Origin: a virus
Taxonomy: Duplodnaviria; Heunggongvirae; Uroviricota; Caudoviricetes
Strand: one strand, 5' to 3'
IMG/VR virus record: IMGVR_UViG_2872164251_000001
Length of the DNA: 46,293 nt
Shown here: one piece after another, positions 1,040-39,165 of the stretch
How positions within the stretch are numbered: the stretch's first letter is position 1
Layout of the letters: each line of letters begins with the position of its first letter
The notes under the pieces: model-generated
Database searches by the model: none
What the model was told of the DNA's origin: nothing
Seen by the model: the letters and a program-made list of their open reading frames with translations, nothing else
Program-made: the position numbers and the translations under genes

Positions 1040-2208
<1,169 letters not shown>

Positions 2209-2289
2209 TGGAGCACCTGTGTTGTTCTGAGGTGAGCATATCACCTCTGTTCAGGTGGCCAAATTCAGTGTGCCACTTCACTTCTGCTT

Positions 2290-2637: not shown

Positions 2638-2727
2638 CTGGAATCTCCATTTATTGGATTGGTATTATTGCGGTAGGTCTGGATATCATTGAGCAATGAA
2701 CAGGCCTCATCGAGTATGAGGCTGTGG

Positions 2728-2975
2728 TTAGTCCTTGCGTAACTCGCTAATTCTTCTGTAAGTCTCTGGTGCTTTGTTTCCGTGTATCTTCATTTCAGAC
2801 TTCAACAGATCAACGAGGGAATCCCATTCGTTGAGGATGCCTTTGAATGCCGGAACGCGCTTTGCAACCTTGTCGAATGAATCTCTGATTTCTGGGATCT
2901 GCTCAACAAGTGCAACGCATCGTCTGAAATCGGCTGCGTCATGGGGAGCGCCGAAGTGATGACCATAGATATTCT
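2728..2975 (-). pseudogene. 3' fragment of an early-region gene, 5'-truncated at the IS629-like junction
   Basis: Frame open from IS boundary: ...NIYGHHFGAPHDAADFRRCVALVEQIPEIRDSFDKV...ELRKD stop; no start codon. Confidence 0.3.
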
Positions 2976-3017
2976 TGAACCGCCCCGGGTTTCCTGGAGA
3001 GTGTTTTATCTGTGAAC

Positions 3018-3908
3018 TCAGGCTGCCAGATCATCGTTTCCGATGGAAGCATAATAAGCTTTTTCTGCTTCTGCCGGAGGGATGTGGCCCAGCCTTTCCA
3101 GCAATCGTCGATTGTTATACCAGTCCACCCACGTTAGTGTGGCCAGTTCCACTTCTGCACGGTTTTTCCAGCTCTTACGGTGTATTACCTCCGCTTTGTA
3201 AAGACCATTGATGCTCTCCGCCATCGCGTTGTCATACGAGTCGCCTGTACTTCCTGTTGATGCCAGTAATCCGGCTTCCTTAAGCCGCTGTGTGTAGGCC
3301 AGCGATACATACTGAGAACCTTTATCACTGTGATGGACCGTGCCGGACGGTCGACGGGCCCATAACGCCTGCTCCAGTGCATCCAGCACGAATGTCGTTT
3401 CCATGGACGATGAGACCCGCCACCCCACGATGTATCCGGCAAACACATCAATGATGAACGCCACATAGACGAAGCCCCTCCATGTGCTGACGTAAGTAAA
3501 ATCAGCCACCCACAGCTGGTCAGGTCGTTCTGCCACGAACTGACGGTTTACGCGGTCGCCTGCGGCAACGGCTTTCCGGCTGATGGTCGTACGGACCTTT
3601 TTACCCCGGAGAACACCGGCAAGTCCCATAACCGCCATGAGACGTGCCACAGTGCATCTGGCCACTCTGATACCTTCCCGTAACAACTGACGCCAGACTT
3701 TACGCACACCGTATACCTTGTGATTTTCATCGTATACGCGCTGTATCTCTTTCTTCAGCCAGTCATCGCGCTGCGCACGGGCACTGCGTTTATCCGGATG
3801 ATGTCGCTGTTGCTGACAGTGGTAATACGTTGACGGGGCAATATGCAGTTCGCTGCATAGCGGTCCGACCCCGTACTGCTCACGCAGCTTATCCAGCAGT
3901 GGCATCAT
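3018..3908 (-). CDS. IS629-like OrfB transposase
   Basis: 296-aa IS3-family DDE transposase ORF overlapping OrfA. Confidence 0.8.
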
Positions 3909-4171
3909 TTTTTCCAGAGGCGGTCGAACTCCGCCTTCGCAAAATAAGCGGAAGCCTGGCGAAGGATATCGTTACTGCGGCGCAGTTCACGATTTTCACG
4001 CTCCAGCTCTTTCAGACGCTGACGTTCAGCGGTGGTGAGCCCTCCATCACCGCCCCCGGTATCCCGCTCATGCTGGCGAACCCAGACACGCAGAGTCTCC
4101 GGCGTACTTTCCAGAACCATACGGACTGCCCGTTGACGGACTTCGGGGGAAAAACGAGTATTTTTAGTCAT
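3905..4171 (-). CDS. IS629-like OrfA (shortened)
   Basis: [37 protein letters not shown]... Confidence 0.75.
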
Positions 4172-4225
4172 CCTGTTTACCTCCTTCTCAGGAAGTTTAG
4201 TCTCCAGGATTCCCGGGGCGGTTCA

Positions 4226-4645
4226 TCGTGCGAGGAAATGACAATGCTTTTAATTCAACCTGGATTTGGCCTTAGCATCAAAAAAGGGCACATGTTTGGC
4301 GAGAAAGAGTCTCAACGAAAAATGGTGTCGATACAGTTGCCATTTATCAGTATTTATTGGCTAAACAGGGAGGCAACAAATTATTGGTATACCTGCGCCA
4401 GAGCAGCATTTAACGACCCTGACTGGTTTGTGAAAAACCACCACGCAGTTCGTCAGGCAAAGAGAAAGGCCAATACGACATACATGAAGGCGTATCGAAA
4501 AGCATGGAAAGAACACCGCGATCGATACCAACAAGACATGGAAAAGCTTGAATCAGAAAACATGGAATTAAGACGAAAGCTCGGTGAAGCAAAACGAGAC
4601 ATCGATGCTTACAAGCGACTTTTTAATGGTGAAAGCCATGCTTAG
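4226..4645 (+). pseudogene. 5'-truncated nin-region ORF reading out of the IS629-like junction
   Basis: Frame open across IS boundary; C-terminal ...MKAYRKAWKEHRDRYQQDMEKLESENMELRRKLGEAKRDIDAYKRLFNGESHA. Confidence 0.3.
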
Positions 4646-4814
4646 CCCATCCCAATCCCTTCAATACCAGAAAGAAAGCGTCGAGCGAGCTTTAACGTGC
4701 GCTAATTGCGGTCAGAAGCTGCATGTGCTGGAAGTTCACGTGTGTGAGCACTGCTGCGCAGAACTGATGAGCGATCCGAATAGCTCAATGTACGAGGAAG
4801 AAGACGATGAATGA
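4638..4814 (+). CDS. ninF: NinF-like small Cys-rich protein
   Basis: ESVERALTCANCGQKLHVLEVHVCEHCCAELMSDPNSS matches lambda NinF as I recall it; start overlaps upstream stop. Confidence 0.55.
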   Translation: MLSPSQSLQYQKESVERALTCANCGQKLHVLEVHVCEHCCAELMSDPNSSMYEEEDDE

Positions 4815-5529
4815 GTTAATAAATGGCAATGCCATCAAAATGACAAGCATTGAAATCGCTGAGTTGGTTGGTAAGCGTCATGACAATGTGAAACGTACCA
4901 TCGAAACGCTGGCTAAAAATGGTGTTATCCGGCTTCCTCAAATTGAGGATTGTGGAAGAATCAATGGGTTAGGCTTAAATCAAAGTTTTTGTGTGTATGT
5001 GTTCGAAGGCGAACAAGGAAAGCGAGACAGTATTGTCGTTGTAGCCCAGTTGTCGCCGGAATTCACCGCTCGCCTTGTTGACCGCTGGCGAGAGCTTGAA
5101 GAAGCTGCGGTTAATATCCCCAAAACGCTACCGGAAGCGTTGCGCCTTGCTGCTGATCTTGCTGAGCAGAAAATGCAACTGGAAAACCAGCTCGCAATTG
5201 CCGCACCTAAAGTTGAGTTTGCCGATCGCGTTGGCGAGGCCAGCGGAATTTTGATTGGAAACTTTGCAAAGGTTGTTGGAATTGGTCCAAACAAACTGTT
5301 TGCGTGGATGCGCGATCACAAAATCCTTATTGCTTCAGGTTCCCGGCGCAATGTGCCAATGCAGGAATATATGGATCGCGGCTATTTCACAGTGAAAGAA
5401 ACAGCGGTCAACACAAATCACGGAATACAGATATCGTTCACCACAAAAATCACCGGGCGTGGTCAACAGTGGCTGACCAGAAAGCTGCTCGATAATGGAA
5501 TGCTGAAAGTAACAGGGGAGGCTGCTTAA
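4807..5529 (+). CDS. Rha-family regulatory protein with C-terminal ANT/KilAC antirepressor domain
   Basis: MTSIEIAELVGKRHDNVKRTIETL Rha-like N-terminus; ADRVGEASGILIGNFAKVVGIG ANT-like C-terminus. Confidence 0.7.
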   Translation: MNELINGNAIKMTSIEIAELVGKRHDNVKRTIETLAKNGVIRLPQIEDCGRINGLGLNQSFCVYVFEGEQGKRDSIVVVAQLSPEFTARLVDRWRELEEAAVNIPKTLPEALRLAADLAEQKMQLENQLAIAAPKVEFADRVGEASGILIGNFAKVVGIGPNKLFAWMRDHKILIASGSRRNVPMQEYMDRGYFTVKETAVNTNHGIQISFTTKITGRGQQWLTRKLLDNGMLKVTGEAA

Positions 5530-5819
5530 TGGCTAATCTACGCAAAGAAGCACGCGGCAGAGAATGCCAGGTACGTATTTACGGCGTATGCAATGGTAAT
5601 CCTGAAACTACAGTTCTGGCACATTACCGGATGGCTGGAATTTGCGGAACGGGAATGAAGCCTGACGACCTGATCGGCGCATGGGCTTGTAGCGCGTGTC
5701 ACGATGAAATCGACCGACGCACCCATAATCTCGACAACAAAGACGCCAGACTTTACCACCTCGAAGGCGTGATCAGGACGCAGGCGATACTGCTGAAGGA
5801 GGGGAAGATTAAGTCATGA
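5529..5819 (+). CDS. DUF1364 (YbcO-like) putative nuclease
   Basis: ARGRECQVRIYGVCNGNPETTVLAHYR...ACSACHDEIDRRTH; position upstream of rusA. Confidence 0.7.
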   Translation: MANLRKEARGRECQVRIYGVCNGNPETTVLAHYRMAGICGTGMKPDDLIGAWACSACHDEIDRRTHNLDNKDARLYHLEGVIRTQAILLKEGKIKS

Positions 5820-6178
5820 GCGAATATCAGTTTGTGCTTCCATACCCGCCGTCGGTGAACACCTACTGGCGAAGACGGGGAAACCAATACTACATCAGCG
5901 ATAAAGGCCAGAAATACCGAAAAGAAGTTCAGCAAATAATCCTCCAACTCAAGTTAGACATTTTCACCAAATCACGACTCCGCATCAAAGTCATCGCAGA
6001 CGTTCCAGACTCCCGCCGCCGCGACCTCGATAACATCCTGAAAGGTTTACTCGACTCCCTTATCCACGCCGGATTTGCGGAAGACGACGAGCAATTCGAT
6101 GACATTCGCGTAATTCGTGGTGTGAAAGTACCAGGCGGAAGGCTTGGAATAAAAATCACCGAACTGGAGAACGTATGA
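5816..6178 (+). CDS. rusA: RusA Holliday-junction resolvase
   Basis: LPYPPSVNTYWRRRG...RRRDLDNILKGLLDSL...GGRLGIKITE. Confidence 0.85.
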   Translation: MSEYQFVLPYPPSVNTYWRRRGNQYYISDKGQKYRKEVQQIILQLKLDIFTKSRLRIKVIADVPDSRRRDLDNILKGLLDSLIHAGFAEDDEQFDDIRVIRGVKVPGGRLGIKITELENV

Positions 6179-6363
6179 ACGCCACAATTCAAACGATACC
6201 AGAGCTTCTTATCCAGACACGAGGCAATCAGACCGAAGTGGCGAGGATGCTTTCCTGCGCAAGAGGAACAGTGCTCAAGTACAACCGAGACAGCAAAGGC
6301 GAGCGTCACGTAATAGTTAACGGCGTCCTGATGGTCAAACAGGGCAAGAGGGGAAGACGATGA
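6175..6363 (+). CDS. ninH: NinH-like protein
   Basis: IPELLIQTRGNQTEVARMLSCARGTVLKY...IVNGVLMV resembles lambda NinH. Confidence 0.65.
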   Translation: MNATIQTIPELLIQTRGNQTEVARMLSCARGTVLKYNRDSKGERHVIVNGVLMVKQGKRGRR

Positions 6364-6983
6364 GACTCGAAAGCGTAGCTAAATTTCATTCGCCAAAAAG
6401 CCCGATGATGAGCGACTCACCACGGGCCACGGCTTCTGACTCTCTTTCCGGTACTGATGTGATGGCTGCTATGGGGATGGCGCAATCACAAGCCGGATTC
6501 GGAATGGCTGCATTCTGTGGTAAGCACGAACTCAGCCAGAACGACAAACAAAAGGCTATCAACTATCTGATGCAATTTGCACACAAGGTATCGGGGAAAT
6601 ACCGTGGCGTTGCAAAGCTTGAAGGAAATACTAAGGCAAAGGTACTGCAAGTGCTCGCAACATTCGCTTATGCGGATTATTGCCGTAGTGCCGCGACGCC
6701 GGGCGCAAGATGCAGAGATTGCCACGGTACAGGCCGTGCGGTTGATATTGCCAAAACAGAGCTGTGGGGGAGAGTTGTTGAGAAAGAGTGTGGAAGATGC
6801 AAAGGCGTCGGCTATTCAAGGATGCCAGCAAGCGCCGCATATCGCGCTGTAACGATGCTAATCCCCAACCTTACCCAACCCACATGGTCACGCACTGTTA
6901 AGCCGCTGTATGACGCTCTGGTGGTGCAATGCCACAAGGAAGAGTCAATCGCAGACAATATTTTGAATGCGGTCACACGTTAG
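6360..6983 (+). CDS. Q: Late antiterminator Q, lambda type
   Basis: 207 aa, MRLESVAKFHSPKSPMMSDSPRATASDS... with Cys4 zinc motif CRDCHGTG...CGRCKG; followed by lambda-like PR'. Confidence 0.85.
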   Translation: MRLESVAKFHSPKSPMMSDSPRATASDSLSGTDVMAAMGMAQSQAGFGMAAFCGKHELSQNDKQKAINYLMQFAHKVSGKYRGVAKLEGNTKAKVLQVLATFAYADYCRSAATPGARCRDCHGTGRAVDIAKTELWGRVVEKECGRCKGVGYSRMPASAAYRAVTMLIPNLTQPTWSRTVKPLYDALVVQCHKEESIADNILNAVTR

Positions 6984-7025
6984 CAGCATGATTGCCACGG
7001 ATGGCAACATATTAACGGCATGATA

Positions 7026-7054
7026 TTGACTTATTGAATAAAGTTGGGTAAATT
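7026..7054 (+). promoter_or_regulatory. PR' late promoter (-35 TTGACT, 17-bp spacer, -10 TAAATT) with qut region
   Basis: TTGACTtattgaataaagttgggTAAATT immediately downstream of Q. Confidence 0.6.
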
Positions 7055-7060
7055 TGACCC

Positions 7061-7253
7061 AACGATGGGTTAATTCGCTCGTTGTGGTAGTGAGATGAAA
7101 AGAGGCGGCGCTTACTACCGATTCCGCCTAGTTGGTCACTTCGACGTATCGTCTGGAACTCCAACCATCGCAGGCTGAGAGGTCTGCAAAATGCAATCCC
7201 GAAACAGTTCGCAGGTAATAGTTAGAGCCTGCATAACGGTTTCGGGATTTTTT
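7061..7253 (+). ncRNA. Short terminated late leader transcript (lambda 6S-RNA-like)
   Basis: From predicted PR' start to tR' hairpin; about 190 nt; ends inferred not measured. Confidence 0.5.
7196..7253 (+). terminator. tR' rho-independent terminator
   Basis: 10-bp arms ATCCCGAAAC / GTTTCGGGAT followed by TTTTTT. Confidence 0.6.
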
Positions 7254-7694
7254 ATATCTGCACAACAGGTAAGAGCATTGAGCCGATAATCGTGAAGAGT
7301 CGGCGAGCCTGGTTAGCCAGTGCTCTTTCCGTTGTGGTGAATGCACAGGCTGATGTGTAAGGGCAAGAATCTTTCGCTGGATTCGGTGTGGCCACGTAGC
7401 CAGCTGTAGGCAGTTGCAGCAAACCGGAGATCAGCACCGGTCGCCACAATCCAAACTGAGCCGTAGCCACTGACTATCCTGAATTCATCAGTGATAGTTA
7501 CGCTGCGGCCTTCTACACATGATCTTCGTGAAAGTGGGCGGCATGAGGTTGCGCTAACAACCTAATGCCGTTTTGCCCGTGCATATCGGTCACGAACAAA
7601 TCTGATTACTAAACACAGTAGCCTGGATTTGTTCTATCAGTAATCGACCTTATTCCTAATTAAATAGAGCAAATCCCCTTATTGGGGGTAAGAC

Positions 7695-8018
7695 ATGAAG
7701 ATGCCAGAAAAACATGACCTGTTAGCCGCCATTCTCGCGGCAAAGGAACAAGGCATCGGGGCAATCCTTGCGTTTGCAATGGCGTACCTTCGCGGCAGAT
7801 ATAATGGCGGTGCGTTTACAAAAACAGTAATCGACGCAACGATGTGCGCCATCATCGCCTGGTTCATTCGTGACCTTCTCGACTTCGCCGGACTAAGTAG
7901 CAATCTCGCTTATATAACGAGCGTGTTCATCGGCTACATCGGTACTGACTCGATTGGTTCGCTTATCAAACGCTTCGCTGCTAAAAAAGCCGGAGTAGAA
8001 GATGGTGGAAATCAATAA
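7695..8018 (+). CDS. S: Holin S, lambda type (dual-start MKM)
   Basis: [43 protein letters not shown]... Confidence 0.9.
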
Positions 8019-8478
8019 TCAACGTAAGGCGTTCCTCGATATGCTGGCGTGGTCAGAGGGAACTGATAACGGACGTCAGAAAACCAGAAATCATGGTTAT
8101 GACGTCATTGTAGGCGGAGAGCTATTTACTGATTACTCCGATCATCCTCGCAAACTTGTCACACTAAACCCAAAACTAAAATCAACAGCCGCCGGACGTT
8201 ATCAGCTTCTTTCCCGTTGGTGGGATGCTTACCGTAAGCAGCTTGGCCTGAAAGACTTCTCTCCGAAAAGCCAGGACGCTGTGGCACTGCAACAGATTAA
8301 AGAACGTGGCGCTTTACCGATGATTGATCGCGGTGATATTCGTCAGGCAATTGACCGTTGCAGCAATATCTGGGCTTCACTTCCGGGCGCTGGTTATGGT
8401 CAGTTCGAGCATAAGGCTGACAGCCTGATTGCAAAATTCAAAGAAGCAGGCGGAACGGTCAGAGAGATTGATGTATGA
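8002..8478 (+). CDS. R: Endolysin R (lytic transglycosylase)
   Basis: [52 protein letters not shown]. Confidence 0.9.
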
Positions 8479-8942
8479 GCAGAGTCACCGCGATTATCTC
8501 CGCTCTGGTTATCTGCATCATCGTCTGCCTGTCATGGGCGGTTAATCATTACCGTGATAACGCCATGACCTACAAAGAGCAGCGAGATAAAAAAGTCAGT
8601 GAGCTGAAGCAGGCGACCGCCACCATTACTGACATGCAGCAACGCCAGCGTGCTGCTGATGCACTCGATGCTAAATACACGAAGGAGTTAGCTGATGCGA
8701 AAGCTGAAAATGATGCTCTTCGGCGCAAGCTTGATAATGGTGGCAGGGTGCTCGTCAAAGGAAAATGCCCTGTGCCATCCTCAGCCGAAACCTCCAGCGC
8801 CTCCGGCATGGGCAATGATGCCACCGTCGAACTCTCTCCAGTTGCTGGACGAAACGTTCTCGGTATCCGGGACGGAATTATCCGCGACCAAACAGCACTG
8901 AGAACGCTTCAGGAATACATCAGGACGCAATGCCTTCGATGA
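8475..8942 (+). CDS. Rz: Rz i-spanin
   Basis: N-terminal [32 protein letters not shown] then coiled coil; central region differs from lambda Rz as I recall it. Confidence 0.8.
8695..8901 (+). CDS. Rz1: Rz1 o-spanin lipoprotein embedded in Rz (+1 frame)
   Basis: [19 protein letters not shown] lipobox then Pro-rich segment. Confidence 0.7.
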
Positions 8943-9116
8943 TAGCGATAATTTTACTCATCATCCTTCACATCTGGCTCTGTAGACAGGGGGGTGATCA
9001 CTTCTGGAGTAAATCCAGATTAAACATCTCATTGCTGATGCTTGATATTGAGCATCTGGCGCGCGGTAAGGGGCTGCGTTGAGATAAGAGCCAGTCATCA
9101 CAAACACCAGGATTTA

Positions 9117-9140
9117 GCCTCGCATTCGCGGGGCTTTTTT
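9117..9140 (+). terminator. Putative rho-independent terminator after lysis cassette
   Basis: CCTCGC att GCGGGG stem (one G-U pair) followed by CTTTTTT. Confidence 0.4.
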
Positions 9141-9287
9141 ATATCTGCAACAAACGCGCTTCACACGCGCGACTTATGAACACAGAGCCTTTCAGGATGA
9201 CCCTTGAGGATGCCGGTTTGGTAATCGGTGCCTTTCTGTGGGCCGGAATCCTGTGTGACAAGGTTCATCACTAAAAGGTAATCACTG

Positions 9288-9793
9288 ATGAAGTACCCAA
9301 CAGTTATTGTCAATGGTGTGTCCGTTCGTGTTGATGAGGATGGACGCTACAACTTAAACGATCTCCATGCAGCAGCAGTTGCAAATGGAGAGGCTACAGA
9401 GCAACAGCGCCCAAGCCAGTTTTTGCGTAGCGCGCAGATAAAACGCTTCATAAAAGCACTTTGGAACAAATTCAACCACTTAAAATAATCAAAGGTGGTG
9501 CAGAACCAGGTGTGTGGGGTGTTGAACTTCTGGCAATCAGATATGCAGCATGGATTAAGCCGGAATTTGAAATCGAAGTTTATGAAGTTTTCAAAACGGT
9601 TGTCCGTCTCGGCGTTGGCGCAATGTCCCGTCTGAATAGAATCGATCACATCATCAATACTGAAACCAAAGCGATAAGCCAGTGCGCAAGCCAAATGGCT
9701 AAGTGGGGCGTTGGTGGGCGAAAAAGATTGCTTCATGTTGCACGTGAGAGAGCGGCAAATGAAGTGCAAATGTATTTGCCCGGAATGGTGTGA
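9288..9793 (+). pseudogene. KilA-N domain gene, frameshifted near 9455-9465
   Basis: 9288-9488 (VIVNGVSVRVDEDGRYNLNDLH) and 9461-9793 (GVWGVELLAIRYAAWIKPEFEIEVYEVF) are consecutive parts of one KilA-N domain in different frames; paralog of 20981-21778. Confidence 0.6.
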
Positions 9794-10234
9794 TTTCGCA
9801 GGTTAATCCAGTTTTTGCATTACGGCAGTACCGCGAAACAACCCAAGCCAGTAAGTGGGGAAATAACACTGGCAGCCACTGAAAGATGAACCTCCAGCCT
9901 TATGGCAAAAAAGATTCTTTGTGGTGGCGGACTGATGGAAAGACATCGGTTATTGCAGAGGCCATTCAATGAGTGGTCTCGATAATGGCTTATACCCTAC
10001 ACGGGATAACTTAACTGATATCCCTTTTAACGGATAAACGGAGCCAACAATGGCAGAGATTATTCCCATGACTGAAGAACAGAAATTCCAGTTAGAGATT
10101 TACAAACTGGTTATGAACCAGAACGCAGCCGCAGAAGAAGCATTTCAGTTCATTGGCACTGATGAAGTGGCACACTGAATTTGGCCACCTGAACAGAGGT
10201 GATATGCTCACCTCAGAACAACACAGGTGCTCCA

Positions 10235-11403
<1,169 letters not shown>

Positions 11404-11411
11404 CCACTTCA

Positions 11412-11501
11412 TTTCTTGCCTCAAATGGCAGTACGTTAACTATTCAGTCAAATGGTGCGGCGTTTACTGCCACAACCATCAAGATAATCGCGGAGCAGTG
11501 A
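11412..11501 (+). pseudogene. 3' end of a gene truncated by IS911 (possibly a P22-type tail-needle gene)
   Basis: Frame open from IS junction: FLASNGSTLTIQSNGAAFTATTIKIIAEQ stop, stop overlaps next ATG. Confidence 0.2.
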
Positions 11502-11956
11502 TGATTCAGTTCAAACCAACGCGAAACATCGACCTGATCGAAGCAGTAGGAAATCACACTGACATTATCGCCGGGAGCAACAACGGCGATGGATACGACT
11601 ACAAGCCTGAATGCCGTTACTTTGAGGTTAACGTGCACGGGCAGTTCGGCGGAATTGTTTACTATCAGGAGATTCAGCCGCTAACCTTTGATTGCCACGC
11701 CATGTACCTGCCAGAGATTCGTGGATTCAGCAAGGAAATCGGGCTGGCGTTCTGGCGATACATTCTGACTAACACCACCGTTCAGTGCGTCACATCGTTC
11801 GCTGCGCGCAAATTCCGCCACGGTCAGATGTACTGCGCAATGATTGGCCTTAAGCGTGTAGGAACCATCAAGAAATACTTCAAAGGCGTGGATGACGTGA
11901 CGTTTTACAGCGCCACACGCGAAGAACTAATCGACTTCCTGAATCACGGGAGATAG
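11501..11956 (+). CDS. Hypothetical virion protein, P22 gp14-like by position
   Basis: 152-aa ORF with GGAG RBS, immediately upstream of the gp7-like gene; assignment by gene order only. Confidence 0.35.
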   Translation: MIQFKPTRNIDLIEAVGNHTDIIAGSNNGDGYDYKPECRYFEVNVHGQFGGIVYYQEIQPLTFDCHAMYLPEIRGFSKEIGLAFWRYILTNTTVQCVTSFAARKFRHGQMYCAMIGLKRVGTIKKYFKGVDDVTFYSATREELIDFLNHGR

Positions 11957-11958
11957 CC

Positions 11959-12651
11959 ATGTTATATGCATTTAAGCTGGGCAGAAAACTGCGCGGCGAG
12001 GAACCTTATTGCCCTGAAAAAGGCGGGAAAGGTGGCAGCTCTGATAAAAGCGCAAAGTATGCAGCAGAAGCTCAGAAGTATGCCGCAGACCTGCAAAATC
12101 AGCAGTGGCAGACGATCATGAAAAACCTTGCTCCGTTCACGCCTCTTGCGGAGCAGTATGTTAACCAGCTTCAGAACCTTTCCAGTTTAGAAGGTCAGGG
12201 GCAGGCACTTAATCAGTATTACAACTCTCAGCAGTATAAAGACCTTGCAGGTCAGGCTCGTTACCAGAGTCTTGCTGCTGCGGAGGCGACGGGTGGACTT
12301 GGTTCGACAGCCACAAGCAATCAACTGGCTACGATCGCGCCGACACTCGGTCAGTCTTGGTTATCAAACCAGATGAGCAATTACAACAATCTGGCAAACG
12401 TTGGGCTTGGTGCGCTGCAAGGTCAGGCAAACGCCGGGCAGACATACGCCAACAACATGAGCAGCATTGCACAGCAAAGCGCAGCTCTTGCCGCTGCTAA
12501 TGCCAACAAACCATCAAGTCTTCAGACAGCAATTAGTGGCGGAACGTCTGGTGCGATTGCCGGTGCAGGTCTTGCCAGCCTTTTGGGAACATCAACACCT
12601 TGGGGCGCTGGCATTGGTGCTGGTATCGGATTGCTTGGCTCGTTGTTTTAA
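11959..12651 (+). CDS. P22/Sf6 gp7-like ejection (injection) protein
   Basis: MLYAFKLGRKLRGEEPYCPEKGGKGGSSDKSAKYAAEAQKYAADLQNQQ..., Gln/Asn/Ala-rich, C-terminal glycine-zipper GAIAGAGLASLLG...GAGIGAGIGLLGSLF; recognised from memory of P22 gp7. Confidence 0.55.
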   Translation: MLYAFKLGRKLRGEEPYCPEKGGKGGSSDKSAKYAAEAQKYAADLQNQQWQTIMKNLAPFTPLAEQYVNQLQNLSSLEGQGQALNQYYNSQQYKDLAGQARYQSLAAAEATGGLGSTATSNQLATIAPTLGQSWLSNQMSNYNNLANVGLGALQGQANAGQTYANNMSSIAQQSAALAAANANKPSSLQTAISGGTSGAIAGAGLASLLGTSTPWGAGIGAGIGLLGSLF

Positions 12652-12660
12652 GGGGTAATC

Positions 12661-12714
12661 ATGGCTACTTGGCAAGGATCAAATGGCGGATTATTGGCTG
12701 GTATCGGCGGCGTC
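12661..12714 (+). pseudogene. 5' fragment of next ejection-protein gene (gp20-like) truncated by IS1
   Basis: MATWQGSNGGLLAGIGGV then the IS1 end. Confidence 0.35.
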
Positions 12715-12729
12715 GGTAATGACTCCAAC

Positions 12730-13233
12730 TTACTGATAGTGTTTTATGTTCAGATAATGCCCGATGACCTTGTCATGCAGCTCCACCGATTTTGAGAACG
12801 ACAGTGACTTCCGTCCCAGCCTTGCCAGATGTTGTCTCAGATTCAGATTATGTCGCTCAATGCGCTGAGTGTAACGCTTGCTGATAACGTGCAGCTTTCC
12901 CTTCAGGCGTGATTCATACAGCGGCCAGCCATCCGTCATCCATACCACGACCTCAAAGGCCGACAGCAGGCTCAGAAGACGCTCCAGTGTGGCCAGAGTG
13001 CGTTCACCGAAGACGTGCGCCACAACCGTCCTCCGTATCCTGTCATACGCGTAAAACAGCCAGCGCTGACGTGATTTAGCACCGACGTAGCCCCAATGTT
13101 CGTCCATTTCAGCGCAGACAATCACATCACTGCCCGGTTGTATGCGCGAGGTTACCGACTGCGGCCTGAGTTTTTTAAGTGACGTAAAACCGTGTTGAGG
13201 CCAACGCCCATAATGCGTGCGCTGGCGCGACAT
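12730..13233 (-). CDS. insB: IS1 InsB (expressed as InsAB' by frameshift)
   Basis: 167-aa ORF typical of IS1 InsB. Confidence 0.85.
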
Positions 13234-13427
13234 CCGACGCCATTCATGGCCATATCAATGATTTTCTGGTGCGTACCGGGCTGAGAGGCGGTGTAAGTGA
13301 ACTGTAGTTGCCATGTTTTACGGCAATGAGAGCAGAGATAGCGCTGATGTCCGGCAGTGCTTTTGCCGTTACGCACCACGCCTTCAGTAGCGGAGCAGGA
13401 AGGACATCTGATGGAAATGGAAGCCAC
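13152..13427 (-). CDS. insA: IS1 InsA
   Basis: [43 protein letters not shown]. Confidence 0.85.
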
Positions 13428-13482
13428 GCAAGCACCTTAAAATCACCATCATACACTAAATCAGTAAGTTGGCAGCATTACC

Positions 13483-16261: not shown

Positions 16262-16936
16262 TTAGGCTTTGATTTTGTATCTTCTTGGTTTTCCTGAGAA
16301 AATCACTGTACCAATTATAGAGCAATTACCGTTGATCTTAATGTAAGGCTCAGGCCAGTTTGGGTTTAACGCTTTGAGATAACGCTGTGTCCCATCTTCT
16401 ATCAACCTTTTGAAGGTGGTTTCGCCTGTATCGTGCATCAATGCAATAACGTCGTCACCGTGGCAGGCAGGTACTTCAGGATCGACAAAAATCATGTCTC
16501 CCGGGCGGTACTCATCAATCATTGAATCACCTATCACCCGCAAGATATAAGTCATTTCCCCACAGGGTACAGGGCAGGGATACGTTTCTGCTGTGCTCAA
16601 ATCAACCTCAGAATATCCAACTTCTTTCCATGCTCCGGCCTGTACCCATGATATGACAGGGACTAATGTGATTTGTTTATTAGTGATTGAAACATCAGGT
16701 TTTTTTGTGATGTTCGTTGTCTGGTGTTCTTGATCGAGCCATCCGACAGGCAGGTCGAAACATTTTTCGATGTGTCGTGCCATGCTGTCACCGATATTTT
16801 TAGTAGCACCATCTCCCATAAACCTGCTGGTCTGGGTTGGCTCGCGATCAATCATAGTGGCAAAGGAAGAATTCCCGCCAACACCATCTCTCAGTTTTCT
16901 GGCGTTAGACCGCCGGATGTCATGGATTGTTTTCAT
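16262..16936 (-). CDS. cI: CI-type prophage repressor (HTH plus S24 LexA-like peptidase domain)
   Basis: Ala-Gly cleavage site (VQAGAW), Ser nucleophile in VIGDSM, divergent from a Cro-like gene. Confidence 0.85.
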   Translation of the reverse strand: MKTIHDIRRSNARKLRDGVGGNSSFATMIDREPTQTSRFMGDGATKNIGDSMARHIEKCFDLPVGWLDQEHQTTNITKKPDVSITNKQITLVPVISWVQAGAWKEVGYSEVDLSTAETYPCPVPCGEMTYILRVIGDSMIDEYRPGDMIFVDPEVPACHGDDVIALMHDTGETTFKRLIEDGTQRYLKALNPNWPEPYIKINGNCSIIGTVIFSGKPRRYKIKA

Positions 16937-17026
16937 AACGAAATTAAAACCCTTGTACCGTTAAGGTACAAGTGTCTTGGAGGTTCATTTCAATCATGTA
17001 ACATGTACACCGGAGGTACATATTGT
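16937..17026. promoter_or_regulatory. OR region: divergent PRM/PR promoters with palindromic operators
   Basis: Perfect 21-bp palindrome CTTGTACC-GTTAA-GGTACAAG at 16952-16972; ATGTAC-N7-GTACAT further right. Confidence 0.6.
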
Positions 17027-17227
17027 ATGAAAGCGTATTGGGACTCTTTAACCAAAGAACAGCAGGGCGAGTTGGCCGGAAAAGTTGGCTCAACACCTGG
17101 CTACTTACGGCTGGTTTTCAATGGCTATAAAAAAGCCAGTTTTGTGCTGGCTAAAAAACTTGAGCAATGCACGTCAGGTGCAATTACGAAATCTGACTTA
17201 AGACCGGATATCTATCCGAAAGATTAG
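17027..17227 (+). CDS. cro: Cro-like HTH regulator
   Basis: 66 aa, GGAGG RBS, divergent from cI across operators. Confidence 0.65.
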   Translation: MKAYWDSLTKEQQGELAGKVGSTPGYLRLVFNGYKKASFVLAKKLEQCTSGAITKSDLRPDIYPKD

Positions 17228-17258
17228 CAGAACACTTTCAATTTTTAACCACAGAACG

Positions 17259-17822
17259 ATGAGGCTAACCGTGGGTAAGCATCACTGGAAAATAGAAAAA
17301 CAGCCTGAGTGGTACGTGAAAGCTGTCAGAAAAACTATCGCGGCGTTGCCGGGTGGTTACGCTGAAGCGGCTGACTGGCTCGATGTAACAGAAAACGCTT
17401 TATTCAACCGCCTTCGTGCAGATGGCGATCAGATTTTCCCGCTGGGATGGGCAATGGTTTTACAGCGTGCTGGTGGCACTCACTTCATTGCTGATGCTGT
17501 GGCGCAGTCTGCAAATGGCGTCTTTGTGTCTCTTCCTGACGTCGAGGATGTGGACAACGCCGATATCAACCAACGCCTGCTGGAAGTCATTGAACAGATC
17601 GGCAGTTATTCAAAACAGATTCGTTCAGCAATTGAAGACGGTGTAGTGGAACCGCATGAGAAGACAGCAATTAACGATGAGCAGTACCTCTCAATTTCGA
17701 AGCTGCAGGAGCATGCAGCACTGGTCTACAAAATCTTTTGCGTTTCAGAAAGTAGTGACGCCCGCGAGTGTGCAGCTCCGGGCGCCGTGGCATGTCGTGA
17801 CTGTGGAGAAACTAACGCATGA
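17259..17822 (+). CDS. CII-like phage regulatory protein (uncertain family)
   Basis: 187-aa ORF in the cII position between cro and the replication gene. Confidence 0.35.
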
Positions 17823-18175
17823 ACAGTTTAACAACACACTACCGTCGCTCGCAACTGATTGCGCTTCCTGTACCGGGTGGAAAAGCGAAGGTGGAGTATT
17901 GCTATGCAGTAAATGTACCAGGTGACAGGGAAATTGTAACCCACAGCTTTGCAGAGTGGGCTGTGGGTGATTTCAACCGGCAGAAGGAGACAGTCCTTTG
18001 CGACAAGTTAACCGCTGGTTCAAAGAGCACTACGGAGTGCCCGTCAGAGTCATTCGTTGGGAGCCGGAAACACAACGTGTTATCTACCTCCGCGAAGGCT
18101 ATGAGCATGAGTGCTTCAGCCCGCTCGAACAGTTTCGTCGTAAATTCAGGGAAATAGAGGTCGGTCATGAGCACT
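17819..18175 (+). pseudogene. Small early gene with apparent frameshift (N-terminus in one frame, C-terminus in the -1 frame)
   Basis: Frame [32 protein letters not shown]... becomes Ser-rich junk after about 18000 while -1 frame reads [54 protein letters not shown] and ends overlapping the next ATG. Confidence 0.35.
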
Positions 18176-19108
18176 AAATTAACCGGCTATGTATGGGATG
18201 GTTGCGCTGCATCAGGCATGAAATTATCCAGCGTGGCAATTATGGCCCGCCTGGCTGATTTCAGTAATGACGAAGGTGTGTGCTGGCCATCAATTGAAAC
18301 CATTGCCCGCCAGATTGGCGCGGGAATGAGTACCGTCAGAACGGCTATCGCACGGCTGGAAGCAGAAGGCTGGTTAACGCGTAAGGCGCGTCGCCAGGGT
18401 AACCGCAATGCGTCGAATGTTTATCAGCTTAACGTTGCGAAGCTTCAGGCAGCGGCATTTTCTCAACTGTCAGATTCTGACCCGTCAAAATCTGACGCAT
18501 CAAAATCTGACCCGTCAAAATTTGATGCGTCGAAATCTGGCAAAAAAGCGGGTTTTCACCCGTCAGAATCTGGCGGGGATCCGTCAGTAAAATCAAAACA
18601 TGATCCGTCAGATAAAAAAACTTCTCGTCCGGACGCTTCGCAACCGGACACGCAGACGGCTGAACAGGAGTTTTTAACTCGCCATCCTGATGCGGTTGTA
18701 TTCAGCCCTAAAAAGCGCCAGTGGGGAACGCAGGATGATTTGACCTGCGCACAGTGGCTCTGGAAAAAAATCATCGCCCTGTACGAGCAGGCCGCCGAAT
18801 GTGACGGCGAGGTGGTTCGTCCCAAAGAACCGAACTGGACAGCCTGGGCAAACGAAATTCGCCTGATGTGTGTGCAGGATGGTCGTACTCATAAACAAAT
18901 CTGCGAGATGTACAGCCGCGTCAGTCGCGATCCGTTCTGGTGCCGTAACGTGCTCAGCCCGTCGAAGCTGCGGGAAAAATGGGATGAGCTTTCCCTGCGC
19001 TTATCGCCGTCCGTCAGCACGTACACCGAAAAACGCGAAGACCCGTACTTCAAAGCTAGTTACGACAACGTGGACTACAGCCAAATCCCGGCAGGATTCA
19101 GGGGGTGA
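18167..19108 (+). CDS. Replication initiator (lambda O-like) containing origin iterons
   Basis: N-terminal winged-HTH, central repeat-encoded SKSD segment, C-terminal conserved domain; position after cro/cII. Confidence 0.65.
   Translation: MSTKLTGYVWDGCAASGMKLSSVAIMARLADFSNDEGVCWPSIETIARQIGAGMSTVRTAIARLEAEGWLTRKARRQGNRNASNVYQLNVAKLQAAAFSQLSDSDPSKSDASKSDPSKFDASKSGKKAGFHPSESGGDPSVKSKHDPSDKKTSRPDASQPDTQTAEQEFLTRHPDAVVFSPKKRQWGTQDDLTCAQWLWKKIIALYEQAAECDGEVVRPKEPNWTAWANEIRLMCVQDGRTHKQICEMYSRVSRDPFWCRNVLSPSKLREKWDELSLRLSPSVSTYTEKREDPYFKASYDNVDYSQIPAGFRG
18468..18615 (+). repeat. Iteron array (putative ori) inside the initiator gene
   Basis: About 7 tandem copies of CCGTCA(A/G)AATCTGA-like 15-bp units. 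Confidence 0.55.
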
Positions 19109-19599
19109 GCATGAGTCTTTTGAATGACGTTCAGAAATTCATTGAAGCCCATCGGGGCTGTACTTCCGGAGATATTGCGGATGCTTTTGCCGGTTACTCA
19201 CGGCAGCGCGTTCTGCAGTCAGCAAGCAAGTTACGTCAGAGTGGGCGTGTGGCTCACCGTTGTGAAGGAGATACACGCAGACATTTCCCGCGCCTGACTG
19301 AGAGAGCGCAGGAACCGGAACCACAACCAGTTCGTGAAACCAGACCTGTGCGCAATTTCTATGTCGGCACTAACGATCCCCGTGTGATTTTGTGCCTGAC
19401 CCGCCAGGCGGAAGAACTGGAGTCCAGGGGCTTATACCGTCGTGCTGCAACCGTGTGGATGGCGGCATTCCGTGAAAGCCACTCCCAGCCAGAACGAAAC
19501 AATTTTCTGGCGCGTCGTGAGCGGTGCTTACGGAAAAGCAGCAAGCGCGCTGCATCGGGTGAAGAGTGGTATCTGTCAGGGAATTACGTGGGGGCTTAA
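19105..19599 (+). CDS. YfdN-like hypothetical protein
   Basis: 164-aa ORF translationally coupled to upstream and downstream genes. Confidence 0.4.
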   Translation: MSMSLLNDVQKFIEAHRGCTSGDIADAFAGYSRQRVLQSASKLRQSGRVAHRCEGDTRRHFPRLTERAQEPEPQPVRETRPVRNFYVGTNDPRVILCLTRQAEELESRGLYRRAATVWMAAFRESHSQPERNNFLARRERCLRKSSKRAASGEEWYLSGNYVGA

Positions 19600-20252
19600 T
19601 GAGTAATAAATATTGCCAGGCGCTGGTGGAACTGCGGAACAAACCAGCCCATGAACTGAAGGAAGTGGGCGATCAGTGGCGCACGCCGGACAACATTTTC
19701 TGGGGAATTAACACCCTGTTTGGCCCGTTTGTTCTGGATCTGTTCACTGACGGTGATAACGCCAAATGTGCCGCGTATTACACGGCGGAAGACAACGCGC
19801 TGGCGCATGACTGGTCAGAACGTCTTGCGGAGCTTAAAGGTGCTGCCTTTGGTAATCCCCCATACAGCCGCGCCAGTCAGCATGAGGGGCAATACATCAC
19901 CGGCATGCGTTACATCATGAAACATGCCAGTGCCATGCGTGATAAGGGCGGGCGCTATGTTTTCCTGATCAAAGCTGCCACCAGCGAAGTGTGGTGGCCG
20001 GAAGATGCAGATCATATTGCTTTTATTCGCGGGCGTATTGGTTTTGAACTGCCTGTCTGGTTTATCCCGAAAGACGAGAAGCAGGTACTGACAGGAGCTT
20101 TTTTCGCTGGTGCTATTGCTGTTTTTGACAAGACCTGGAAGGGACCGGCAATCAGCTACATCGGGCGCGATGAACTTGAGGCATGTGGTGAGGCGTTTCT
20201 GGCGCAGGTTCGCCAGCAGGCGGAAAAACTGGTCAGGGAGATGGCGGCATGA
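19599..20252 (+). CDS. Phage DNA N6-adenine methyltransferase (Dam-like)
   Basis: GNPPYS motif; TAATG overlap with upstream gene. Confidence 0.75.
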   Translation: MSNKYCQALVELRNKPAHELKEVGDQWRTPDNIFWGINTLFGPFVLDLFTDGDNAKCAAYYTAEDNALAHDWSERLAELKGAAFGNPPYSRASQHEGQYITGMRYIMKHASAMRDKGGRYVFLIKAATSEVWWPEDADHIAFIRGRIGFELPVWFIPKDEKQVLTGAFFAGAIAVFDKTWKGPAISYIGRDELEACGEAFLAQVRQQAEKLVREMAA

Positions 20253-20575
20253 CGACGTTAACTCAATGCCAGCAGCAGGTGCTGGATATGCTGATTTCTT
20301 ATCAGAAAGAACGTGGCTTCCCGCCAACCAATCAGGAGGTGGCAACCATGCTGGGATACCGTTCGGTGAATGCAGCGGTGGAGCATCTTCGCGCACTGGA
20401 GAAAAAAGGCGTCATCACGATAAAGCGTGGCGTGGCCCGGGGGATAACGCTTCATACCGCGGTGAAGGACGACGACAGCGAGGCGGTCGGGATTATCCGC
20501 GCACTGCTTGCCGGTGAGGAAAACGCAAGGCTGCGTGCAACCCACTGGTTACATGAGAGGGACCTGAAAGTATGA
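20249..20575 (+). CDS. LexA N-terminal DNA-binding-domain protein lacking the peptidase domain
   Basis: MTTLTQCQQQVLDMLISYQKERGFPPTNQEVATMLGYRSVNAAVEHLRALEKKGVITIKRGVARGITL parallels the LexA winged-HTH; ATGA overlaps on both sides. Confidence 0.6.
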   Translation: MTTLTQCQQQVLDMLISYQKERGFPPTNQEVATMLGYRSVNAAVEHLRALEKKGVITIKRGVARGITLHTAVKDDDSEAVGIIRALLAGEENARLRATHWLHERDLKV

Positions 20576-20961
20576 AGCTGATCCTGCCTTTTCCGCCCAG
20601 CGTGAACACGTACTGGCGACACCCCAACAAAGGGGCGTTTGCTGGTAAGAGCCTGATAAGCGCGGCGGGGCGAAAATTCCAGAGCGCGGCGTGCGCAGCA
20701 ATAGTTGAGCAGTTACGTCGTCTGCCGAAACCAACGTCGGCACCTGCTTCAGTGGAGATCGTGTTGTTTCCTCCGGATAACCGGATCCGCGATCTGGACA
20801 ACTATAACAAGGCGCTGTTTGACGCCCTGACCCACGCGGGTGTGTGGGAAGACGACAGTCAGGTGAAAAGAATGCTGGTGGAGTGGGGGCCGGTTATCCC
20901 GGAAGGGAAGGTCGAGATCACTATCAATAAGTACGAGAAAACGGCGGGTGCAGCCGCCTGA
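20572..20961 (+). CDS. rusA: RusA Holliday-junction resolvase (second copy)
   Basis: LPFPPSVNTYWRH...NRIRDLDNYNKALFDALT. Confidence 0.8.
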   Translation: MKLILPFPPSVNTYWRHPNKGAFAGKSLISAAGRKFQSAACAAIVEQLRRLPKPTSAPASVEIVLFPPDNRIRDLDNYNKALFDALTHAGVWEDDSQVKRMLVEWGPVIPEGKVEITINKYEKTAGAAA

Positions 20962-20980
20962 TTAAGAGGAGAAACGAAGT

Positions 20981-25621: not shown

Positions 25622-25997
25622 GCTGCTTATCGTTGGTTTCTTCGTTACTGTCATTGGTTCTTTCATCTGGTCGGCCAACCACTACTACAGCAAATATCAG
25701 TACGAAAAGAAACGTGCTGATGAGGCTGTACGAAATGCTGAATCAGCAACTGCCATTACCAATAACGTCCTGCAATCACTACAAATCGTCAATACAGTTC
25801 TGGAGGCTAACCAGCATGCAAAACAGCAGATCGCACTGGAGTCACAGAGAGCCCGGGAAGATATCAAAGTGGCTGTTGCGGATGATGATTGTGCTTCACG
25901 CCCTGTGCCTGATGTCGCTGCTGACCGGTTGCGGAAGTACGCGGACAGTATACGTGCAGGTTCCAACGATGCCGTTACCGACGAACCTGCTCGCTGA
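25605..25997 (+). CDS. Rz-like i-spanin
   Basis: N-terminal TM then coiled-coil-like segment, overlaps endolysin end. Confidence 0.7.
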   Translation: MKLSYKLLIVGFFVTVIGSFIWSANHYYSKYQYEKKRADEAVRNAESATAITNNVLQSLQIVNTVLEANQHAKQQIALESQRAREDIKVAVADDDCASRPVPDVAADRLRKYADSIRAGSNDAVTDEPAR

Positions 25998-26160
25998 AAC
26001 TCCACAGCCAGTTATACCCAATCCTCTGACTTATGGGGATAGTCTTAGTTTGAATGTAAGTCTGCTATCAGCACTGGGGCTATGTAACCGTGATAAGTCT
26101 GATCTTCGTAGGTTAGGAGAGCAAAAGTACAATCTGCATTTGAATAATAATATTCATTAG
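25882..26160 (+). CDS. Rz1-like o-spanin lipoprotein (overlapping architecture)
   Basis: MMIVLHALCLMSLLTGC lipobox, Pro-rich; starts inside Rz and extends past it. Confidence 0.5.
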   Translation: MMIVLHALCLMSLLTGCGSTRTVYVQVPTMPLPTNLLAETPQPVIPNPLTYGDSLSLNVSLLSALGLCNRDKSDLRRLGEQKYNLHLNNNIH

Positions 26161-26237
26161 GTGAAATATTATTATTTGACTGTTCTAGTTATTATGCATT
26201 TAGTTACAATACTCTCACTATTAACAGTGAGGTAAAA

Positions 26238-26792
26238 ATGAACGAAAATTATATTGCATATGAGACACTTGTAGCAAACCGTGCTGCTGCTGAGTGGGCT
26301 TGTTGGGCAATGATTGCATCTTGGGTGAGTGCTGGAGCTACTATTGTTACTTTGGTTTTGGCGTTCAAGGCATTGTTTACGTGGCGGGAACAAGAGAAAA
26401 CAAAAGTAAAAATAGATTTTAGGAATGCATTAAAGAAATTAAAGACAGCTCTATTATTTATGCCTGTCAATATTGACCCCGAGAAACTCAATGATGAACG
26501 AGAGCAAGTTATTGCGAAATGGCTATTTAAAGATGTAGATCTTATTAGTCAGCAAATTGAGTTGGGAGAAGAGAATGTTAAAAGATTTGATGAACTTTTG
26601 AGTATTTTCGATTGTTGCCAGTCTTCATGGTTTGCGACAGAGCACTTATTTGATAATACTGAGTTAGAAAAAGTTTGGCATGAGTTCGAGTCTAACTTTA
26701 ATAAATATATAAATGGTGGTGAGAGTAAGGATTTACTTATGAAAATGCTTGATAAGCTCATCTCTTCTAGATTTGTATTTGAGTCAAGATAA
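26238..26792 (+). CDS. Hypothetical membrane-anchored protein, AT-rich moron
   Basis: N-terminal TM WACWAMIASWVSAGATIVTLVLAF, GAGG RBS, imperfect palindrome CACTATTAACAGTG upstream. Confidence 0.55.
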   Translation: MNENYIAYETLVANRAAAEWACWAMIASWVSAGATIVTLVLAFKALFTWREQEKTKVKIDFRNALKKLKTALLFMPVNIDPEKLNDEREQVIAKWLFKDVDLISQQIELGEENVKRFDELLSIFDCCQSSWFATEHLFDNTELEKVWHEFESNFNKYINGGESKDLLMKMLDKLISSRFVFESR

Positions 26793-26842
26793 TTGCCTTT
26801 GAGTATTTTTCTTTATTATTTTACTTATTATAAATTTTTTAT

Positions 26843-27193
26843 ATGCCCCCTAGAATCCCAAAAGCCTGCCGTGTTCGCGGCTGCCGCTCTACAACCACGG
26901 ACCCGTCAGGCTACTGCGAAAGCCATAAAAGCGAAGGCTGGAAGCAATACAAGCCAGGACAATCTCGTCATCAGCGCGGTTATGGTTCGAAGTGGGATGT
27001 TATCCGCGTGCGTGTCCTGAAGCGTGACAAAGGCCTGTGTCAGCTATGTCTGCGTGCTGGTGTGGTGCGTGAGGCGAAAACTGTTGACCACATCATCCCT
27101 AAAGCGCATGGCGGCACAGATGCCGACAGCAATCTGCAGAGCCTGTGCTGGCCGTGCCATAAGGAGAAGACGGCCCGTGAACGGCTAAAGTGA
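26843..27193 (+). CDS. HNH endonuclease (terminase-associated)
   Basis: CxxC...DHIIPKAHGG...CWPCH motif, upstream of terminase. Confidence 0.8.
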   Translation: MPPRIPKACRVRGCRSTTTDPSGYCESHKSEGWKQYKPGQSRHQRGYGSKWDVIRVRVLKRDKGLCQLCLRAGVVREAKTVDHIIPKAHGGTDADSNLQSLCWPCHKEKTARERLK

Positions 27194-39105: not shown

Positions 39106-39165
39106 TGAAAAATTAATCTGTTAATGAGTCCCACTCCGGTGGGATTTTTTATGTACGGAGTTTAT

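Follow-up and report, generated by a model that had tools for sequence, protein, structure and literature searches.

A candidate replication origin within the initiator gene of an SfII/SfIV-like lambdoid prophage

A candidate origin in the initiator gene

We analysed a 46,293-nucleotide stretch of DNA from a tailed virus (IMG/VR record IMGVR_UViG_2872164251_000001; hereafter, the window), which contains an SfII/SfIV-like lambdoid prophage encoding a single replication initiator related to the O protein of phage lambda. Nucleotides (nt) ~18458–18661, located in the part of the initiator gene that encodes the linker between its two domains, very probably represent the replication origin of this prophage. 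The region contains an array of short repeats (iterons) followed by an easily melted stretch and a conserved element that we refer to as the right arm (Table 1). An initial annotation had proposed that the repeats are the likely origin of replication of the second prophage in the window; this proposal is supported by the homology of the C-terminal domain of the initiator, the position of the array, the dependence of the repeats on the family of the N-terminal domain, the conservation of synonymous sites, and the presence of an adjacent melt-prone stretch, and it is from these features that we infer the origin function. We found no description of this origin in the open-access literature or in phage records.

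Structure of the iteron array

Tandem Repeats Finder detected the array noted in the initial annotation at positions 18476–18539, with a period of 15 bp (4.3 copies, 81% matches, and a score of 86) and also with a period of 30 bp (2.1 copies, 88% matches, and a score of 100). No other score in the 46-kb window is as high as these two, and the program identified no second comparable array in the prophage. When delimited in register with the codons of the gene, the array occupies codons 101–136 and consists of five head-to-tail units (U1–U5), a spacer, and a sixth unit (U6). The dyad GTCA-N5-TGAC is present in every unit (inverted repeats I3, I5, and I7), and the consensus given in Table 1 is based on the position counts of 25 units from three loci. 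The core sequence CGTCAAAATCTGA, allowing up to two mismatches, has six matches in 18470–18573 and three in the remaining 46 kb.

The peptide encoded by the array reads SDSD-PSKSD-ASKSD-PSKFD-ASKSG...PSESG, and thus the repetitive SKSD-type peptide that had been noted is indeed specified by the repeats. The repeats themselves are likewise real, but the number of about seven that had been counted has to be revised to six full units, only five of which are strictly tandem. The others belong to a second motif: the CCGTCAG copies at 18578–18587 and 18602–18611, counted previously as repeat units, are parts of a separate conserved motif, GATCCGTCAG, which is common to relatives with differing iterons.

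The sequence of U6 covaries with the iteron type, being GTCCAGAATCTGGAC and ATTGACCCCGAT in the divergent loci L082 and L081, respectively, and in each case matching the iterons of its own locus. The possibility that U6 is a homologue of the right-arm palindrome of lambda (CGTCAGAGAATTCTGGCG) was considered and rejected, since U6 changes with the iteron type in these two loci. In the spacer that precedes U6, the A columns are invariant across the variants of the HTH_36 family, to which the N-terminal domain (N-domain) of the initiator belongs (alignment A2). The minus strand of the spacer region (18562–18549) carries a small GC hairpin that precedes T6 (CGGGTGAAAACCCG CTTTTTTGCC), a terminator-like structure facing leftward. 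This hairpin also occurs in Pantoea (L084) but is missing from Klebsiella (L083) and L081, and the A-run is the only universal part of the spacer.

Conservation of the linker-coding DNA

Codon identity was compared among loci L081–L084 and L086 (from Escherichia coli, Klebsiella, and Pantoea; 57–77% protein identity) and was scored only where the amino acid is identical. In each pairwise comparison, the identity was 41–64% in the N-domain and the C-terminal domain (C-domain) versus 85–96% in codons 99–152. When four homologues were pooled, 101 of 113 codons in this stretch were identical versus 322 of 633 elsewhere (odds ratio, 8.1; Fisher p = 5e-16). A sliding profile in 15-codon windows rises at nt ~18455, remains at 0.8–1.0 to ~18660, and then falls to ~0.5; the windows with values of 0.8–1.0 start at nt 18467–18632 and together cover ~18467–18676. 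Synonymous conservation is about twofold higher in nt ~18458–18661 than in the rest of the gene. The constraint extends rightward beyond the units into linker-coding DNA without repeats, and misalignment among the units is therefore not the whole explanation. Protein structure does not explain it either, because the stretch encodes a linker that is predicted to be disordered, for which the least constraint on the protein would be expected.

A first locus scan of viral contigs yielded 80 near-identical copies, which are informative on the copy number of the units but not on divergence. Among these and the window (n=81), the tandem units number five in 76 loci, six in three, seven in one, and are unclear in one, and the few substitutions are mostly located in the 2–3 nt between the cores. 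Differences in length between homologues also lie mainly in the repeat block, which ranges from 0–1 units (P0017, P0031, and P0069) to ~10 units (P0047). In alignment A1, the first three of these homologues and P0015 show in-frame losses of nearly all units, with 0–1 left; they could be natural origin-defective prophages or assembly collapses. In-frame deletions of ori are known in lambda.

Relationship between the repeats and the N-domain

To the 80 loci obtained from one-genome-per-species contigs, we added L081–L086 and the window, giving 87 loci, 85 of which had enough flanking sequence for the analysis. An array, defined as at least three copies of some 10-mer (with one mismatch at most) in the 260 nt upstream of the C-domain, is present in 77 of the 85 loci; stretches of equal size in the N-domain and the C-domain gave two and one positive loci, respectively. 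BLASTP clustering of the N-domains produced five clusters, all of which share the O-type C-domain. The modal period of the repeats is 15 or 30 bp in the HTH_36 family (22 of 28 loci), 23 or 46 bp in the L085-like family (15 of 15), 12 bp in a third family (11 of 14), 22 bp in a fourth family (9 of 11), and 21 bp in the phi80-like family (6 of 11).

Divergent HTH_36 N-domains are accompanied by 15-bp units of their own, GTCCAGAAWCTGAAC in L082 and GTTGACCCGTCAAAT in L081 and L086. Locus L085 has an unrelated N-domain, a C-domain that is 100% identical, and the same neighbour genes, and its array comprises six GGTCAAARTG sites at a 23-bp period and three 12-mers of ACAGAGAAT. These data indicate that the period and the sequence of the repeats follow the N-domain family and not the C-domain. 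In Citrobacter phage phiNP, the homology extends over nt 2–479 of the gene and ends at position 18645 of the window, and in phage mEp460 it extends over nt 446–942 and starts at position 18612. From these breakpoints, it follows that the N-domain and the iterons travel as one module.

Melt-prone stretch and right-arm element

The iterons are directly followed by the least stable 40-mer of the gene (18586–18625; nearest-neighbour value of -46.2 kcal/mol versus a gene mean of -57.0), which overlaps the 40-mer with the lowest GC content near the gene (18580–18619; 32.5%). A search for an AT-rich region downstream of the repeats had been suggested, and this stretch, which is only moderately AT-rich, occupies that place; the prophage contains no second AT-rich candidate. 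The two copies of GATCCGTCAG mentioned above, which are the only ones in the window, provide two Dam sites 24 bp apart. All of the HTH_36 variants examined share the arrangement GATCCGTCAG-N14-GATCCGTCAGAT followed by an A-run, and a third GATC is present in some relatives. GATC reaches a density of 15 per kb in the 80 nt that precede the right arm versus 3.7 per kb in the rest of the gene, in loci that are not independent of one another; two or three sites are found in these 80 nt in 32 of 85 loci. The prophage encodes a Dam methylase of its own (19566–20252), two genes downstream of the initiator gene. This enrichment and the presence of the prophage's own methylase gene suggest that the origin may be under Dam/SeqA control.

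The right-arm element GTCCGGACGCTTCGCAACCGGAC overlaps a 10-bp palindrome, CGTCCGGACG (18626–18635), and CCGGAC recurs after 15 bp. Seven divergent loci (from E. coli, Klebsiella, and Pantoea, and including L085) have a nearly invariant DNA sequence in this element. Allowing up to four substitutions, it was found in 30 of 87 loci, and most of the others carry the lambda/phi80 element, TCGTCNGAGAATTCTGNCGAATCC, at that place. The latter also occupies the right-arm position in Providencia loci whose 15-bp iterons are those of the window.

The initiator and its relationship to known replication systems

The initiator contains an HTH_36 domain (Pfam; amino acids 23–70, E 4e-11), and the other Pfam matches are to related winged-helix families only. 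In PHROGs, the whole protein matches phrog_391, 'replication initiation O-like' (E 2e-135), and the NCBIfam search returned no informative model. Amino acids ~131–277 are homologous to the C-terminal half of the O proteins of 434 and lambda (BLASTP, 30% identity, E 7e-26), and the C-domain is similarly related to gp15 of phi80 (35% identity, E 2e-25); tblastn of the C-domain against lambda records gave E 4e-18. The gene is thus O-like by the homology of its C-domain, as had been assigned in the initial annotation. In the structure predicted by AlphaFold2 from a 24-sequence alignment, a winged-helix N-domain and a helical C-domain are separated by a disordered linker (Table 1). Foldseek matched the N-domain to generic MarR-like winged helices; this search and a PDB sequence search returned no match for the C-domain and thus gave no structural clue to helicase recruitment.

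The origin of lambda and its relatives consists of iterons and an AT-rich tract midway along the O gene, and the iterons closest to this tract are sufficient for in vitro unwinding (PMC7466680). In lambda and 434, and also in the six-iteron origins of Stx phages, the origin is likewise contained in the gene for the initiator, at the linker between the domains. The 434 and phi80 records carry annotated gpO and gp15 sites at the same interdomain position (codons ~117–145 and ~122–147, respectively), and the resemblance to the lambda arrangement, with ori inside O, that had been pointed out for the array is borne out. The order of elements is also shared, i.e. iterons with dyad symmetry on the left, an easily melted A-rich stretch, and a conserved, GC-richer element. 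In both systems, the C-domains are homologous, the gene follows cro and cII in the rightward early operon, and the number of iterons varies between relatives. By position, C-domain homology, iterons, the behaviour of the module, and the adjacent melt-prone stretch, the region described here is probably an origin of the ori-lambda type.

Several differences are also evident. The 434 record shows four 18-bp units at a spacing of 20–24 bp, whereas six 15-bp units are present here, five of them abutting. No GATC is found in the melt-prone stretch of 434, in contrast to two in that of the window, and the right arm of lambda, TCGTCNGAGAATTCTGNCGAATCC, is replaced at the same place by the variant GTCCGGACGCTTCGCAACCGGAC. 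Two lambda features are absent: the Phage_rep_O N-domain, in place of which the initiator has HTH_36, and the P partner, which in lambda accompanies a W-rich acidic tail and is lacking here, where the tail is of the GFRG type. The origin in gene 15 of phi80 has the same layout at the same place in the gene, with four gp15 sites (TTCCCGAAAACGGGAA) at a 21-bp period. The start of the sequence to the right of its AT-rich part is also similar (CTTCGTCCG versus CTTCTCGTCCG here). The phi80 system differs in the N-domain and in the sequence and period of the iterons, and its P-like gene 14 is located directly downstream.

Direct repeats beside an AT-rich stretch and a winged-helix initiator are also features of the iteron origins of theta plasmids (Rep_3 initiators such as RepE, pi, and pPS10 RepA). 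In contrast to these, the Rep_3 domain was not found in the initiator by Pfam, with only a weak, sub-threshold match to RP-C (17.2 bits versus a cut-off of 24.4), the origin lies inside the initiator gene, and the units are dyad-symmetric and abutting. There is also no DnaA box in or next to the array: sequences resembling TTATNCACA with up to one mismatch are absent from 17811–20979, and their window-wide count is that expected by chance. In 2006, Weigel and Seitz surveyed the replication modules of phages and reportedly distinguished an 'initiator-solo' type, in which an initiator is encoded without a helicase or loader gene. The single O-like initiator described here, without a phage helicase, loader, or primase, resembles that type.

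Proposed mechanism and helicase recruitment

The initiator would be produced from the rightward early operon, which comprises the cro-like, cII-like, DUF4222, and initiator genes. Its winged-helix N-domain, probably as a dimer, would bind the six dyad-symmetric iterons, and the resulting nucleoprotein complex would destabilize the A-rich, GATC-bearing stretch at 18578–18625, next to the right-arm element. The lambda-O-type C-domain and the GFRG tail would then recruit the replicative helicase and allow the origin to fire. In the absence of any P, DnaB, DnaC, or primase gene from the prophage, this helicase would be the host DnaB, probably brought by the host DnaC.

The tail of the initiator, encoded at 19009–19108, is of particular relevance to the recruitment step. 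Among loci L081–L169, initiators with a W-rich acidic tail (as in lambda, ...NTDWIYGVDL) have a P gene (PF06992) downstream in 42 loci. In the same set, P was never found downstream of initiators with a ...PxGFRG tail, which are followed by genes for PerC-like, DnaC/IstB-like, DUF1627, DUF977, methylase, or ParB-like proteins. The last ~15 residues of O-type initiators may therefore determine the helicase-loader partner. That the tail sets the partner and that this phage uses the host DnaB, probably with the host DnaC, is a tentative proposal, to which we assign somewhat less than an even chance. A more elaborate scheme, which we regard as rather unlikely, is a P-independent activation by GFRG-tailed HTH_36 O proteins, in which a continuous initiator filament on the abutting dyads would contrast with the wrapped O-some of lambda, unwinding would be gated by Dam/SeqA through the two or three GATC sites, and the GFRG tail, replacing the W-rich tail, would recruit the host DnaB–DnaC directly.

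Evaluation of the origin assignment and alternative explanations

Several points weigh against the assignment of this region as a lambda-type origin. The annotation of the near-identical prophage in E. coli PapRG-04-4 contains no P, DnaB, DnaC, or primase genes, and the lack of an encoded helicase loader leaves the recruitment step, which is the weakest one, without an identified partner. A period of 15 bp would place neighbouring sites on nearly opposite faces of the helix, unlike the 21–24-bp spacing of the lambda type, and the likeness to lambda is further qualified by the failure of Pfam to find Phage_rep_O in the initiator. The melt-prone stretch is no more than moderately AT-rich and reaches only about the 94th percentile of the window. 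The units of one array have codons in common in part through their recent duplication. The array has been almost completely lost in homologues P0017, P0031, and P0069, which indicates either that it is dispensable for the protein or that the origins of those prophages are defective. The genome paper of SfIV mentions neither an origin nor iterons, and a full-text search of open-access literature for the iteron strings returned nothing relevant.

The repeats could alternatively be a by-product of a low-complexity linker, in which replication slippage expanded an xSKSD unit and any selection acts on the peptide rather than on the DNA. The array does encode a linker that is predicted to be disordered, and the variation in copy number, from 0–1 to ~10 among homologues and from five to seven among near-identical loci, is typical of slippage-prone repeats. 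We nevertheless consider this explanation improbable: conservation at synonymous sites greatly exceeds that in the remaining gene, also where the linker has no repeats; in unrelated N-domain families, the place of the array is taken by unrelated arrays that differ in period, not all of which encode a peptide repeat; and the variation in close relatives is concentrated between the cores. Little likelihood is likewise given to a purely regulatory role of the units, as initiator-binding sites for autoregulation, copy control, incompatibility, or phage exclusion, with the true start of replication located elsewhere. Plasmid iterons and ectopic copies of ori-lambda are generally known to inhibit replication by titrating the initiator (see also PMC4488673 and PMC3349717). 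However, the melt-prone stretch and the right-arm element flank the array in the order also seen in lambda and phi80, the prophage offers no second array or AT-rich candidate as the start, and the sites are located ~300 bp inside the gene, far from the promoter region. A scan of 16800–19800 for sigma-70-like promoters found none, and an operator role is thus unsupported.

Another explanation is that the conserved DNA, particularly 18612–18649, serves as a recombination 'linker' for the exchange of lambdoid modules and is not a component of an origin. The mEp460 and phiNP breakpoints bracket the invariant 23-bp element, which is common to loci with unrelated N-domains. This explanation nonetheless covers only the right-arm element, leaving the iterons and their tracking of the N-domain unaccounted for, and lambda and phi80 have a conserved element at the same place in linkers that bear origins; as a replacement for the origin assignment, it is very improbable. 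The two roles may be compatible, and the right-arm element may be both a part of the origin and a recombination joint. Finally, the constraint could be imposed by another reading frame or by RNA. Small open reading frames (ORFs) exist on both strands (18408–18590, plus; 18429–18596, minus), but nothing independent supports them, and their frames stay open solely through the absence of stop codons from the repeat. Hairpins can be formed by the dyad units, and a permissive Rfam scan of 16900–19700 gave a weak match to mir-5880 (30.7 bits); this match is far below the gathering score of 97 bits and concerns a eukaryotic microRNA family. As it was the only match and is spurious, a known RNA was rejected as the explanation. 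Related arrays of other sequence and period would preserve neither such an ORF nor such a fold, and the chance that this explanation is correct appears negligible. A replication origin of the lambda type remains the preferred interpretation.

Prophage setting and relatives

Upstream of the initiator gene are genes for an S24 repressor (16262–16936, minus strand), a cro-like protein, a CII-family protein, and a DUF4222 protein. The gene directly downstream is of the PerC family and is not P; it is followed by the Dam, LexA-like, and RusA genes. In the upstream region, two plus-strand ORFs overlap in different frames, at 17819–18157 (112 amino acids; phrog_1170, E 5e-69) and 17998–18177 (59 amino acids; DUF4222, phrog_1343). 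In the RefSeq annotation of the near-identical prophage, only the DUF4222 gene of this pair is present; miscalled ORFs may underlie either phrog_1170 or phrog_1343, or the two ORFs may genuinely overlap.

Copies of the initiator gene with 97.5–99.8% identity are present in the Shigella phages SfII and SfIV and several phages of E. coli. The SfII and SfIV records label it only as 'replication protein', 'O protein family protein', 'primosomal protein', or 'helix-turn-helix protein' and contain no origin feature. The arrangement with a single initiator and no P is also found in SfII, SfIV, and many enterobacterial prophages. A prophage with 99.2% identity is present in E. coli PapRG-04-4, at the Thr tRNA gene next to proA. 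The integrase end found in that copy is lacking in the window, and the prophage analysed here may thus be unable to excise. Two segments (25669–26843, near a KAP NTPase gene and the lysis region, and 36887–39178, in the tail region) are unmatched in the otherwise 97–99% identical PapRG-04-4 prophage and represent local module replacements.

The description of this element as the second prophage of the window was confirmed, since positions 1–13480 are occupied by the remnant of another (P22-like/lambdoid) prophage that is riddled with insertion sequence (IS) elements.

Table 1. Features of the candidate origin, the initiator, and the neighbouring prophage remnant (aa, amino acids; pLDDT, predicted local distance difference test score; TRF, Tandem Repeats Finder)
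Feature	Position	Strand	Sequence or description	Basis
Initiator gene	18167–19108	+	313 aa	ORF
N-domain, winged-helix	aa 1–99			AlphaFold2, Pfam HTH_36
Linker, predicted disordered	aa ~103–162			pLDDT below 50
C-domain, helical, lambda-O-type	aa ~162–279			AlphaFold2, homology
Tail, low-confidence/disordered	after aa 279		ending in ...IPAGFRG	AlphaFold2
Stretch under synonymous constraint, proposed extent of origin	18458–18661 (codons ~98–165)		coincides with predicted disordered linker	
Five head-to-tail 15-bp iterons, candidate N-domain binding sites	18467–18541		consensus nCrTCAAAATCTGAC	TRF, repeat families D1/D2
U1	18467–18481		CTGTCAGATTCTGAC	
U2	18482–18496		CCGTCAAAATCTGAC	
U3	18497–18511		GCATCAAAATCTGAC	
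U4	18512–18526		CCGTCAAAATTTGAT	
U5	18527–18541		GCGTCGAAATCTGGC	
Spacer between U5 and U6	18542–18559		18 bp, AAAAAAGCGGGTTTTCAC	
U6, sixth iteron	18560–18574		CCGTCAGAATCTGGC; iteron closest to easily melted stretch	
Candidate DNA-unwinding region	18578–18625		two direct GATCCGTCAG copies, A-rich tracts, A7 run	
Right-arm element	18627–18649		23 bp, GTCCGGACGCTTCGCAACCGGAC	
Integrase, first prophage remnant	1–1110			
IS3-family transposase genes (three copies), first remnant	1043–1879, 3021–3908, 10564–11400			
Antirepressor, first remnant	4807–5529			
Q, first remnant	6360–6983			
Lysis genes, first remnant	8002–8942			
P22 gp7, first remnant	11959–12651			
IS1 transposase, abutting second prophage	12733–13233			

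Implications

The overall interpretation does not overturn the current understanding of lambdoid replication and will be unsurprising to specialists; the points that stand out are the 15-bp period of the abutting units, the presence of GATC in the candidate unwinding stretch, and the GFRG tail without P. The analysis provides a candidate origin of ~200 bp for a replication module found very commonly among prophages of E. coli, Shigella, Salmonella, and Klebsiella, including the serotype-converting phages SfII and SfIV. The link between the tail of the initiator and the genes downstream points to a possible seat of helicase-loader specificity. For O-type initiators, it is nearly a rule that the linker is encoded by an iteron array, with the period as a signature of the N-domain family, and this rule of period and position could be used for the automatic annotation of phage origins.

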